A stretch of DNA of 48,502 nt from Escherichia phage Lambda, in sequence record NC_001416.1. One strand, given 5' to 3'. Positions 38,686-48,502 of this stretch are shown here, in pieces. Each line of letters begins with the position of its first letter. The first letter of the stretch is position 1. A program made the position numbers and the translations under genes. The notes below the pieces were generated by a model. That model was given only the letters and a program-made list of their open reading frames with translations. It did no database searches and was not told the DNA's origin.

Positions 38686-39585
38686 ATGACAAATACAGCA
38701 AAAATACTCAACTTCGGCAGAGGTAACTTTGCCGGACAGGAGCGTAATGTGGCAGATCTCGATGATGGTTACGCCAGACTATCAAATATGCTGCTTGAGG
38801 CTTATTCGGGCGCAGATCTGACCAAGCGACAGTTTAAAGTGCTGCTTGCCATTCTGCGTAAAACCTATGGGTGGAATAAACCAATGGACAGAATCACCGA
38901 TTCTCAACTTAGCGAGATTACAAAGTTACCTGTCAAACGGTGCAATGAAGCCAAGTTAGAACTCGTCAGAATGAATATTATCAAGCAGCAAGGCGGCATG
39001 TTTGGACCAAATAAAAACATCTCAGAATGGTGCATCCCTCAAAACGAGGGAAAATCCCCTAAAACGAGGGATAAAACATCCCTCAAATTGGGGGATTGCT
39101 ATCCCTCAAAACAGGGGGACACAAAAGACACTATTACAAAAGAAAAAAGAAAAGATTATTCGTCAGAGAATTCTGGCGAATCCTCTGACCAGCCAGAAAA
39201 CGACCTTTCTGTGGTGAAACCGGATGCTGCAATTCAGAGCGGCAGCAAGTGGGGGACAGCAGAAGACCTGACCGCCGCAGAGTGGATGTTTGACATGGTG
39301 AAGACTATCGCACCATCAGCCAGAAAACCGAATTTTGCTGGGTGGGCTAACGATATCCGCCTGATGCGTGAACGTGACGGACGTAACCACCGCGACATGT
39401 GTGTGCTGTTCCGCTGGGCATGCCAGGACAACTTCTGGTCCGGTAACGTGCTGAGCCCGGCCAAACTCCGCGATAAGTGGACCCAACTCGAAATCAACCG
39501 TAACAAGCAACAGGCAGGCGTGACAGCCAGCAAACCAAAACTCGACCTGACAAACACAGACTGGATTTACGGGGTGGATCTATGA
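38686..39585 (+). CDS. O: Replication initiator O
   Basis: ORF track 38686..39585 (299 aa). Confidence 0.97.
   Translation: MTNTAKILNFGRGNFAGQERNVADLDDGYARLSNMLLEAYSGADLTKRQFKVLLAILRKTYGWNKPMDRITDSQLSEITKLPVKRCNEAKLELVRMNIIKQQGGMFGPNKNISEWCIPQNEGKSPKTRDKTSLKLGDCYPSKQGDTKDTITKEKRKDYSSENSGESSDQPENDLSVVKPDAAIQSGSKWGTAEDLTAAEWMFDMVKTIAPSARKPNFAGWANDIRLMRERDGRNHRDMCVLFRWACQDNFWSGNVLSPAKLRDKWTQLEINRNKQQAGVTASKPKLDLTNTDWIYGVDL
39034..39165 (+). repeat. ori: ori-lambda: four direct iterons (atccctcaaaacgaggg-like, about 39034-39118) followed by an AT-rich tract, inside the O coding sequence
   Basis: Four tandem 17-19 bp repeats and an A-rich stretch read by eye. Confidence 0.9.
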
Positions 39586-44590: not shown

Positions 44591-44780
44591 ATGGGTTAAT
44601 TCGCTCGTTGTGGTAGTGAGATGAAAAGAGGCGGCGCTTACTACCGATTCCGCCTAGTTGGTCACTTCGACGTATCGTCTGGAACTCCAACCATCGCAGG
44701 CAGAGAGGTCTGCAAAATGCAATCCCGAAACAGTTCGCAGGTAATAGTTAGAGCCTGCATAACGGTTTCGGGATTTTTTA
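44587..44780 (+). ncRNA. 6S RNA: short pR'-initiated transcript terminated at tR'
   Basis: Established lambda feature; bounded by pR' and the tR' hairpin seen here. Confidence 0.6.
44722..44780 (+). terminator. tR': tR' rho-independent terminator
   Basis: atcccgaaac ... gtttcgggat stem followed by tttttta. Confidence 0.85.
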
Positions 44781-45185
44781 TATCTGCACAACAGGTAAGA
44801 GCATTGAGTCGATAATCGTGAAGAGTCGGCGAGCCTGGTTAGCCAGTGCTCTTTCCGTTGTGCTGAATTAAGCGAATACCGGAAGCAGAACCGGATCACC
44901 AAATGCGTACAGGCGTCATCGCCGCCCAGCAACAGCACAACCCAAACTGAGCCGTAGCCACTGTCTGTCCTGAATTCATTAGTAATAGTTACGCTGCGGC
45001 CTTTTACACATGACCTTCGTGAAAGCGGGTGGCAGGAGGTCGCGCTAACAACCTCCTGCCGTTTTGCCCGTGCATATCGGTCACGAACAAATCTGATTAC
45101 TAAACACAGTAGCCTGGATTTGTTCTATCAGTAATCGACCTTATTCCTAATTAAATAGAGCAAATCCCCTTATTGGGGGTAAGAC

Positions 45186-47041: not shown

Positions 47042-47575
47042 TTAGCGTGGAAAGATTTGTGTAGTGTTCTGAATGCTCTCAGTAAATAGTAATGAATTAT
47101 CAAAGGTATAGTAATATCTTTTATGTTCATGGATATTTGTAACCCATCGGAAAACTCCTGCTTTAGCAAGATTTTCCCTGTATTGCTGAAATGTGATTTC
47201 TCTTGATTTCAACCTATCATAGGACGTTTCTATAAGATGCGTGTTTCTTGAGAATTTAACATTTACAACCTTTTTAAGTCCTTTTATTAACACGGTGTTA
47301 TCGTTTTCTAACACGATGTGAATATTATCTGTGGCTAGATAGTAAATATAATGTGAGACGTTGTGACGTTTTAGTTCAGAATAAAACAATTCACAGTCTA
47401 AATCTTTTCGCACTTGATCGAATATTTCTTTAAAAATGGCAACCTGAGCCATTGGTAAAACCTTCCATGTGATACGAGGGCGCGTAGTTTGCATTATCGT
47501 TTTTATCGTTTCAATCTGGTCTGACCTCCTTGTGTTTTGTTGATGATTTATGTCAAATATTAGGAATGTTTTCAC
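47042..47575 (-). CDS. Hypothetical protein (177 aa), AT-rich right-end accessory gene
   Basis: ORF track 47042..47575; no motif recognised. Confidence 0.7.
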
Positions 47576-47737
47576 TTAATAGTATTGGTTGCGTAACAAA
47601 GTGCGGTCCTGCTGGCATTCTGGAGGGAAATACAACCGACAGATGTATGTAAGGCCAACGTGCTCAAATCTTCATACAGAAAGATTTGAAGTAATATTTT
47701 AACCGCTAGATGAAGAGCAAGCGCATGGAGCGACAAA

Positions 47738-47944
47738 ATGAATAAAGAACAATCTGCTGATGATCCCTCCGTGGATCTGATTCGTGTAAAAAATATGCTT
47801 AATAGCACCATTTCTATGAGTTACCCTGATGTTGTAATTGCATGTATAGAACATAAGGTGTCTCTGGAAGCATTCAGAGCAATTGAGGCAGCGTTGGTGA
47901 AGCACGATAATAATATGAAGGATTATTCCCTGGTGGTTGACTGA
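47738..47944 (+). CDS. Hypothetical small protein (68 aa), divergent from the 47042..47575 ORF
   Basis: ORF track 47738..47944; coding status uncertain. Confidence 0.4.
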
Positions 47945-48108
47945 TCACCATAACTGCTAATCATTCAAACTATTTAGTCTGTGACAGAGCCAACACGCAG
48001 TCTGTCACTGTCAGGAAAGTGGTAAAACTGCAACTCAATTACTGCAATGCCCTCGTAATTAAGTGAATTTACAATATCGTCCTGTTCGGAGGGAAGAACG
48101 CGGGATGT

Positions 48109-48303
48109 TCATTCTTCATCACTTTTAATTGATGTATATGCTCTCTTTTCTGACGTTAGTCTCCGACGGCAGGCTTCAATGACCCAGGCTGAGAAATTCC
48201 CGGACCCTTTTTGCTCAAGAGCGATGTTAATTTGTTCAATCATTTGGTTAGGAAAGCGGATGTTGCGGGTTGTTGTTCTGCGGGTTCTGTTCTTCGTTGA
48301 CAT
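48109..48303 (-). CDS. Hypothetical ribbon-helix-helix (Arc/MetJ-like) small protein
   Basis: ORF track 48109..48303 (64 aa); NIRFPNQMIEQINIALEQKGSGNFSAWVIEACRRRL resembles the Arc/CopG RHH pattern. Confidence 0.45.
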   Translation of the reverse strand: MSTKNRTRRTTTRNIRFPNQMIEQINIALEQKGSGNFSAWVIEACRRRLTSEKRAYTSIKSDEE

Positions 48304-48502
48304 GAGGTTGCCCCGTATTCAGTGTCGCTGATTTGTATTGTCTGAAGTTGTTTTTACGTTAAGTTGATGCAGATCAATTAATACGATACCTGCGTCATAA
48401 TTGATTATTTGACGTGGTTTGATGGCCTCCACGCACGTTGTGATATGTAGATGATAATCATTATCACTTTACGGGTCCTTTCCGGTGATCCGACAGGTTA
48501 CG

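Follow-up and report, generated by a model that had tools for sequence, protein, structure and literature searches.

The right end of the bacteriophage lambda genome carries a 64-residue open reading frame (ORF) on the minus strand, at 48109..48303, a real gene of the DUF3950/YlcI/YnfO family whose product is probably a small protein that binds DNA sequence-specifically and falls in the ribbon-helix-helix (RHH; MetJ/Arc/CopG) class. The window analysed is the whole phage lambda genome of 48,502 bp, and positions are numbered on NC_001416.1; many lambda records match its last 553 bp, which end at cos, with 100% identity. The coding sequence starts with ATG, ends with a stop codon at 48109-48111 and, according to the ORF listing, translates to MSTKNRTRRTTTRNIRFPNQMIEQINIALEQKGSGNFSAWVIEACRRRLTSEKRAYTSIKSDEE (64 residues). 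It is present exactly as an initial annotation of this DNA had described it, and its translation contains the core quoted there. Databases already have names for both the ORF and its family, and hence the ORF itself is not new. What is new here is the placement in the RHH class, together with a covariation between residues and DNA sites and a conserved antisense position. Membership of the DUF3950 family gives the protein a name, not an explanation, and our literature search found no paper giving a fold or a function for the DUF3950/YlcI/YnfO family. The initial annotation knew of no assigned function, which holds for every family member, but it had overlooked the family names.

The protein scores 72.8 bits with Pfam PF13132 (DUF3950), for which the cut-off is 25 (E=1.9e-20, residues 21-49 only), and 37.6 bits with NCBIfam NF041551 (YlcI_YnfO_N), for which it is 30 (E=1.6e-9). 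Both curated cut-offs are exceeded, and PHROG 949, a group of unknown function, is matched over residues 1-60 (E=2.5e-35), which places the protein in the family. In the first 50 codons of 48 distinct lambda-subfamily alleles, the mean proportions of synonymous (pS) and nonsynonymous (pN) differences are 0.42 and 0.05, a ratio of 0.12, and the most diverged allele pairs reach a pS of ~0.82 at a pN of ~0.05. Variable sites are distributed 13/9/34 over the three codon positions. Relatives as low as 32% identity keep the start codon and the length, and they also keep the motif K-[NG]-I-R-F-P-x-x-L-[IL]-E-x-I ... N-F-S-A-W-V-[IL]-[ED]-A-C. The low pN/pS ratio, the third-position bias, the family matches and the retention of start, length and motif show that the ORF is a real gene under strong constraint and not a chance ORF. 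The earlier suggestion that it may be a relic fails, since strong purifying selection acts on the gene.

The conservation does not extend over the whole protein. The first ~49 residues are nearly invariant across lambda-like lineages, and at least six unrelated types of tail are found behind them. Matches in Escherichia coli break at ~48092 and ~48141. These breakpoints and the exchanged tails point to a mosaic junction directly behind the conserved domain, so that residues 50-64 (48112..48156, minus strand) form a variable C-terminal tail. The family is narrow, with 142 matching cluster representatives among 1.84 billion, many of which are fragments, and it is mostly limited to Enterobacterales and a few other Gammaproteobacteria. 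Within E. coli, 4,080 of 5,426 complete genomes (~75%) contain a match. Family diversity was taken from the cluster-representative search and the genome scan; the protein homologue search and the first viral-contig scan gave nearly only lambda control-DNA reads and near-identical prophages. The exact lambda right end is also present in assemblies of Kitasatospora, Streptomyces, Bradyrhizobium and Cohnella (loci L111, L114, L121, L144, L147, L151 and others), in a 3,566-bp Arcanobacterium 'plasmid unnamed1', and in hundreds of noisy ~3.5-kb ENA contigs (behind P0001-P0120). These occurrences are almost certainly contamination with sequencing control DNA, which inflates homologue counts.

The conserved core, residues 12-49 (48157..48270, minus strand), is predicted to fold into an RHH domain. 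An AlphaFold2 (AF2) model from a 21-sequence alignment is of moderate quality, with a mean predicted local distance difference test score (pLDDT) of 68.6 and values of 73-80 in the core. It shows the RHH topology: an extended segment at residues 12-18, helix A at 19-32, a turn at G33-S-G35 and helix B at 37-61. DSSP assigns no strand in this model, as expected of a single subunit; the model fits one RHH subunit because the ribbon arises only in the dimer. The Foldseek matches in the PDB are mostly NikR, Arc, MazE9, ParD2, HicB, VapB, NikA and MatP (~2.1-2.4 Å over 37-42 columns), and the named matches in BFVD are mostly RHH, CopG, HicB or NikA proteins; none of the matches in either set is individually significant. 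The best PDB profile match is a CopG-family chain, aligned in register (E=0.5), and a weak match to RHH_6 (E=0.09) appears in one of the 21 members. An HHalign alignment with the Arc sequence pairs N14/N11, R16/R13, F17/W14 and P18/P15, with E=0.015 and a probability of 3%.

This weak alignment and the covariation in satellites described below identify T12-R13-N14-I15-R16-F17-P18 (48250..48270, minus strand) as the beta-strand predicted to read DNA; this strand, I-R-F-P included, falls outside the DUF3950 model of Pfam. A sequence search of the PDB gave chance matches to ribosomal L16 only, and profile searches placed the protein in no recognised RHH family; at the sequence level it is a separate family. 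The initial proposal of a small RHH repressor thus holds for the topology, by structure prediction with individually non-significant matches, but not for membership of a recognised RHH family by sequence profile. An RHH fold that reads DNA with its N-terminal strand is, in our assessment, well supported but indirect.

Distant members of the family are found in satellite-like elements that carry an integrase, an AlpA-family regulator, a primase, a small terminase of their own and a capsid gene. In these elements the homologue is a lone unit, divergent from a replication/packaging operon whose first gene is annotated as 'transcriptional repressor' in PHROGs. Upstream of the homologue, two GTG-N6-CAC palindromes, each of 12 bp, are located near -99 and near -76, 23 bp apart, and a third site at about -30 overlaps a TATAGT -10-like element. 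The centres of the sites vary with the residues that precede I-R-F in the protein. T-K-G occurs with GTG[CT]A[CT]A[TA]ACAC, Y-K-G with TGT[TG]TAAACA, and K-K-x with GC-rich centres; for example, locus L084 combines T-T-K-G with GTGCACATACAC, and L085 combines L-Y-K-G with GTGTTTAAACAC.

Over 496 locus pairs, site distance is correlated with the three residues before I-R-F with a Spearman rho of -0.72, and 0 of 2000 permutations were as extreme, a result that is no true probability, since the relatedness of the loci makes the samples non-independent. For the remainder of the protein rho is -0.14, and for the neighbouring phrog_1743 regulator it is a non-significant -0.08 (120 pairs). In each band of overall identity, matching residues go with site distances of 0.8-1.45 and mismatching residues with distances of 3.3-4.5. 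Comparisons of individual loci agree with this. L088 and L099 have near-identical phrog_1743 proteins and different sites, with T-K-K in one and Q-K-K in the other; L090, L133 and L098 share one phrog_1743 type and have three classes of site; and L087 and L090 differ in phrog_1743 and share both the DUF3950 protein and the sites. Independent viral contigs show the same pairing of residues and sites. Both the stratified and the pairwise comparisons speak against shared ancestry as the sole source of the correlation. Such covariation is what a DNA-reading N-terminal strand, the binding mode of RHH proteins, would be expected to produce, and it gives indirect support, in the satellite subfamily only, for reading of the DNA sequence by the strand side chains. 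Because the sites lie in the divergent control region and their sequence follows the recognition residues, the satellite homologue is most likely an autoregulated repressor of a divergent switch.

Other features of the satellite loci were observed alongside these sites. In two natural fusion proteins, P0198 and P0255 (the latter in 43 collection blocks), DUF3950 is linked to the N-terminal third of a Terminase_2 small subunit (TerS), and both domains exceed the Pfam cut-offs; a viral scan with the fusion protein as first query matched the TerS half only. In L244 (E. coli CP027459, 5400-9800), a satellite with an integrase, an AlpA-like gene, two DUF3950 genes, a primase, TerS and a capsid gene directly adjoins a truncated 61-residue Terminase_2 fragment of an HNH-type prophage, which has its own DUF3950 copy. 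This suggests that the satellite integrates into the small-terminase gene of its helper. Public gene calls often place an over-extended antisense coding sequence of ~324 residues on the satellite DUF3950 gene (L001, LR881103, 3634-4608; L099, 5610-6584), of which the last ~60 residues alone resemble a real protein (phrog_1743). In L084-L160, a conserved G+C-rich stem-loop (e.g. GAAGCCCGG...CCGGGCTTC) lies ~145-150 nt upstream of the DUF3950 genes, and its loop holds a further GTG-N6-CAC-like sequence. This stem-loop may serve the divergent operon as a terminator or an RNA element. Three satellite loci gave no match in Rfam, and the 'terminators' returned for L084 by a consensus scan were rejected as being just the paired sites described above.

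In lambda-type phages the gene has a fixed position. We counted its neighbours as homology-anchored genes in 282 distinct lambda-subfamily loci; a simpler orientation count based on ORFs was contaminated by spurious ORFs and was discarded. Packaging genes are always upstream and on the opposite strand (Nu1 in 98 loci, A in 79, HNH in 85, TerS in 82 and the large subunit TerL in 63), and lysis genes are always downstream and on the opposite strand (Rz in 195, R in 170). The only genes on the strand of the ORF are bor and p78, and no late gene is among them. In all 282 loci, the ORF thus lies between the lysis and the packaging genes and runs antisense to the late operon. The arrangement is the same with two unrelated packaging modules, the Nu1/A module of lambda and the HNH + Terminase_2 + TerL module found in BP-4795 and many Stx phages. 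In lambda the ORF is a lone unit, divergent from nu1 across cos, and the next gene downstream, lambdap79, is convergent with it. Between these convergent genes there is a perfect 8-bp inverted repeat, GTGACAGA/TCTGTCAC, with arms 12 nt apart (47981-48008); it is possibly a bidirectional stop signal, though it has no T-run.

The ORF is missing from the classical lambda gene list, a status that we inferred from the cross-references of phage O276 and from a gene table of a CRISPR interference (CRISPRi) study. In the RefSeq record of O276, the neighbouring genes are cross-referenced to 'Lambda gp 78' and 'gp 79', and the counterpart of the ORF has no such cross-reference and is labelled 'YlcI/YnfO family protein'. 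In other records it is hypothetical or unannotated. The CRISPRi table of lambda genes stops at lambdap79 (PMC10695390). We note that the published lambda 'orf-64' is lambdap73, which is also 64 residues long and lies on the plus strand at 44621-44815, where it overlaps the 6S RNA immediately downstream of pR'. Because lambdap73 is a different ORF, data on 'orf-64' do not apply to the gene studied here, and we rejected as evidence the Nu1-Orf64 two-hybrid interaction (PMC3224144), the lysogen microarray signal (PMC1151598), the CRISPRi result for orf-64 (PMC10695390) and the literature on the overlap with 6S RNA. Mutations of ylcI in two E. coli evolution papers were likewise set aside as incidental polymorphisms.

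Upstream of the gene lies a conserved non-coding block, 48304..48405, extending from the ORF start to the far arm of an inverted repeat; it is probably either a promoter/control region or a cos-linked element. In 39 cos-type haplotypes, nucleotide diversity (pi) is 0.0136 in 48304-48372 and 0.0075 in 48373-48405, compared with 0.0715 at the four-fold sites of the adjacent ORF, so the block of ~100 nt is about 5-10x more conserved than adjacent synonymous sites. A 37-residue ORF within this region (48319-48432, minus strand), annotated as a hypothetical protein in O276, was considered and rejected as the cause of the conservation. Its start codon is missing in most relatives, its frame is broken in L265, it has no third-position bias (4/6/4), and all differences are amino-acid-changing; it is probably not a gene. 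A weak Shine-Dalgarno-like GGGG at 48311..48314 on the minus strand, 8-11 nt 5' of the ATG, is kept in cos-type relatives. The only -10-like hexamer at a suitable distance is GACAAT (48337..48342, minus strand; -39..-34), which has no matching -35; the relative L313 has GATAAT at this position.

The inverted repeat reported by the initial annotation at about 48373-48406 is real and essentially correct, although the 10-mers quoted for it were one base off register. In our repeat search its arms are 13 nt long, 85% complementary and 7 nt apart: ATCAATTAATACG (48373..48385; gene-proximal, at -77 on the ORF strand) and CGTCATAATTGAT (48393..48405; distal, at -102). They contain a perfect 8-bp core, ATCAATTA (48373-48380) and TAATTGAT (48398-48405), located 70-102 nt upstream of the ATG on the ORF strand. 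An equally good inverted repeat is found in 1.35% of mononucleotide shuffles of 48304-48472 and an equally good 12-mer pair in 8% of shuffles, and 28 such repeats exist in lambda as a whole (0.58 per kb); the dyad is moderately unusual with respect to chance. ATCAATTA occurs three times in lambda, every time at this ORF. Only 5 of the 3,297 octamers that occur three times cluster within 300 bp, and 3 of these 5 are overlapping windows of the ori iterons. Another octamer, CCGTCGTC, occurs exactly three times, all within 278 bp (17241-17526), and forms the only such cluster besides the ori iterons (39033-39110) and the ATCAATTA cluster. The third copy of ATCAATTA lies inside the variable tail (48126..48133, minus strand), occurs only with the TSIKS tail type of lambda and is probably incidental; we rejected its participation in a looping system, as it is unconserved in relatives. 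A second inverted repeat, TGATGCAG (48365-48372) and CTGCGTCA (48390-48397), spans 48365..48397 and is interleaved with the dyad in the order X-Y-N9-X'-Y', so one simple hairpin is impossible. The plus-strand RNA fold uses the TGATGCAG/CTGCGTCA pairing (-10.3 kcal/mol, a modest z score of -2.5), and the dyad as a hairpin of the ORF-strand RNA was rejected, with an unremarkable z score of -1.3. A search of 47500-48502 in Rfam gave no match.

The initial annotation had proposed this dyad as a candidate operator, and that role is not established by our comparison of relatives. HNH-type phages, with the same T-R-N residues, have no ATCAATTA within -400..+600 of the gene. The distal arm is ATTAATTA in L304 and unrecognisable in L265, and no compensating change accompanies this drift; the proximal arm, by comparison, is kept in all cos-type relatives, and all DNA from it down to the ATG stays conserved in the diverged ones. 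Neither co-occurrence with the protein nor kept symmetry is therefore seen: the dyad goes with lambda-type cos, not with the protein. We do not call it an operator, because HNH-type phages lack the octamer, the distal arm drifts and the third copy is tied to one tail. The two upstream copies of ATCAATTA, at -102 and -77, are near the -99 and -76 positions of the satellite sites, and the region around them is the leading candidate for an autoregulatory site, held tentatively and with more doubt than belief.

Several further observations count, like the absence of the octamer from HNH-type phages and the non-independence of related loci, against a sequence-specific regulator acting in lambda. 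The covariation comes from loci of the satellite subfamily and not from lambda, and one locus, L311 (A-T-K-G), breaks a simple one-residue code. Site pairs of the satellite GTG-N6-CAC type are absent from lambda and likewise from HNH-type phages. On the ORF strand we detected no consensus sigma-70 promoter and no intrinsic terminator, even across joined cos. Direct evidence of transcription or translation of the lambda ORF was not found, and the locus is not mentioned in a paper derived from lambda ribosome profiling or in a preprint on lambda small RNAs. Since no promoter was found, HNH-type phages lack the dyad and GTG-N6-CAC pairs are absent, any target proposed for the protein in lambda is a candidate only. 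For a homologue there is evidence of expression: an analysis of K-12 RNA-seq samples lists ybcW-ylcI as a convergent pair with overlapping transcripts, found in half or more of the samples (PMC12288877), and therefore the DLP12 copy is transcribed from a silent prophage.

The main alternative explanation of the upstream region, which we regard as possible but doubtful, assigns the dyad and the 100-nt conserved block to the cos/packaging module of lambda type, or else to the late mRNA crossing the block, with the RHH protein acting elsewhere. The dyad could then serve terminase during packaging termination, or a host architectural protein, as an accessory site. It would explain why the dyad accompanies every lambda-type cos, whatever the tail of the ORF, and never HNH-type modules, despite identical recognition residues. 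The region is also rich in ATCA/TGAT tetramers, which we take to resemble the IHF core, and its plus strand folds better than shuffles, as given above. Moreover, a further conserved palindrome abuts cosQ, GGGTCCT (48473-48479): a perfect 15-bp palindrome, TGATAATCATTATCA (48452-48466), lies 6 bp to its left, and its arms are kept in all cos-type relatives including the most diverged, with the central base alone varying. We know of no assigned function for this palindrome. However, the dyad is outside cos, being 97-129 bp left of the 48502 end, ~100-130 bp left of cosN and beyond GGGTCCT; cos is a segment of ~200 bp comprising cosQ, cosN and cosB (PMC4669245). Conservation is highest in the stretch next to the ORF start (-77 to -1), where a promoter or a 5' leader would be expected to show it, and the octamers are placed much like the satellite sites.

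The protein itself might instead be an accessory DNA-binding packaging factor at cos, like the RHH accessory proteins at conjugative origins of transfer, and not a regulator of transcription. The gene always adjoins packaging genes, of two unrelated terminase systems, and the P0255 and P0198 fusions connect the domain to a small terminase subunit. We nevertheless consider this role unlikely. All packaging proteins come from the late operon, to which the gene is antisense, and head-on late transcription should oppose its expression during packaging. In satellites it is in the control region, far from TerS, and both the covariation with the sites and the layout of three sites over -10-like elements fit a transcriptional switch; the published two-hybrid match between Nu1 and Orf64 concerns lambdap73. 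It is very improbable that the protein is an orphan antitoxin or a remnant of a type II toxin-antitoxin module, as the initial annotation had also envisaged. Many of its RHH structural neighbours are antitoxins (TacA2, VapB12, ParD2, MazE9, HicB), and there is a weak HicB-like PHROG match (E=0.02), but this reading is unsupported because lambda has no same-strand partner within ~200 nt, the 282 related loci have no co-directional neighbour, the C-terminal tail (the would-be toxin-binding part) is hypervariable and often very short, and PADLOC gives no match. The strong purifying selection also speaks against a decaying relic.

Returning to a DNA-binding RHH regulator as the preferred reading, we propose the following model. 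Two subunits would pair their N-terminal strands (T12-R-N-I-R-F-P18) as a beta-ribbon inserted in the major groove, with residues 12-14 fixing specificity and the invariant R16 giving a common contact. Helices A and B would form the dimer core, and the C-terminal tail would be dispensable and swapped freely among lineages. In lambda, the conserved 100-nt block upstream may drive weak transcription of the gene as long as late transcription is off, i.e., in the prophage and in early infection, and head-on late transcription after induction would silence it. The lambda protein would accordingly be a small repressor produced in the absence of late transcription. That its gene is always antisense and always placed between lysis and packaging genes suggests that transcriptional collision regulates it.

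Although lambda serves as the reference for temperate phages, the classical list and recent genome-wide screens lack this conserved gene. The RHH assignment turns DUF3950 into a directly testable candidate for a DNA-binding regulator, and it points to a likely switch regulator of the widespread integrase-AlpA-primase-capsid satellites of Enterobacterales, whose control is poorly understood. A broader idea, which we offer as speculation with little weight, is that lambdoid YlcI/YnfO proteins and their satellite homologues are one family by which helper prophages and satellites silence or sense one another. Made only with late transcription off, the prophage copy might keep either a packaging-proximal site or a satellite switch repressed until head-on late transcription after induction removes it, and the DUF3950-TerS fusions might be decoys that occupy the packaging site of the helper by means of the same dimerising RHH domain.

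The gene can be compared with several known systems. The satellite DUF3950 gene resembles Stl of staphylococcal pathogenicity islands in being divergent from a replication/packaging operon across a control region with multiple sites, whereas the DUF3950 protein has an unrelated fold and is much smaller; Gram-negative phage-inducible chromosomal islands (PICIs) have been described as AlpA-activated, and a repressor role of DUF3950 in satellites is predicted from sequence comparison. With the CopG/MetJ-type RHH regulators, whose binding to short repeated sites is cooperative, the family shares structural neighbours (CopG-family TacA2, StnY and CopA), and its satellite homologues face 2-4 repeated sites at fixed spacing. 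These sites are 12-bp palindromes 23 bp apart and not 8-bp tandem boxes. Arc and Mnt of phage P22 are likewise small phage-encoded beta-alpha-alpha proteins. The lambda strand N-I-R-F-P is in register with N-L-R-W-P of Arc, which is among the Foldseek matches, but the sequences are not significantly related (E=0.19 for the Arc-like PHROG; HHalign probability 3%). Helix B is longer in the lambda protein, and arc and mnt are in the immI region controlling ant, whereas the lambda gene is antisense in the late operon beside cos.

By its position, the ORF is also similar to bor-type lambdoid morons. It is an independently oriented unit on the anti-late strand of the late region, sharing cluster and orientation with bor and p78 (antisense in 282 of 282 loci, with no consensus promoter or terminator detected for the lambda ORF), and non-essential by position. 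It differs from these morons in being a predicted DNA-binding regulator, not an envelope or virulence factor, and in being kept beside two different packaging modules. The closest counterparts are YlcI of the DLP12 prophage and YnfO of the Qin prophage in E. coli K-12, which are direct homologues with the same 49-residue core. Both genes occupy the same place beside a nu1 homologue (nohD and nohA, respectively), ylcI also has the same neighbours (bor, ybcV and ybcW), and both proteins differ from the lambda protein in their C-terminal tails only.

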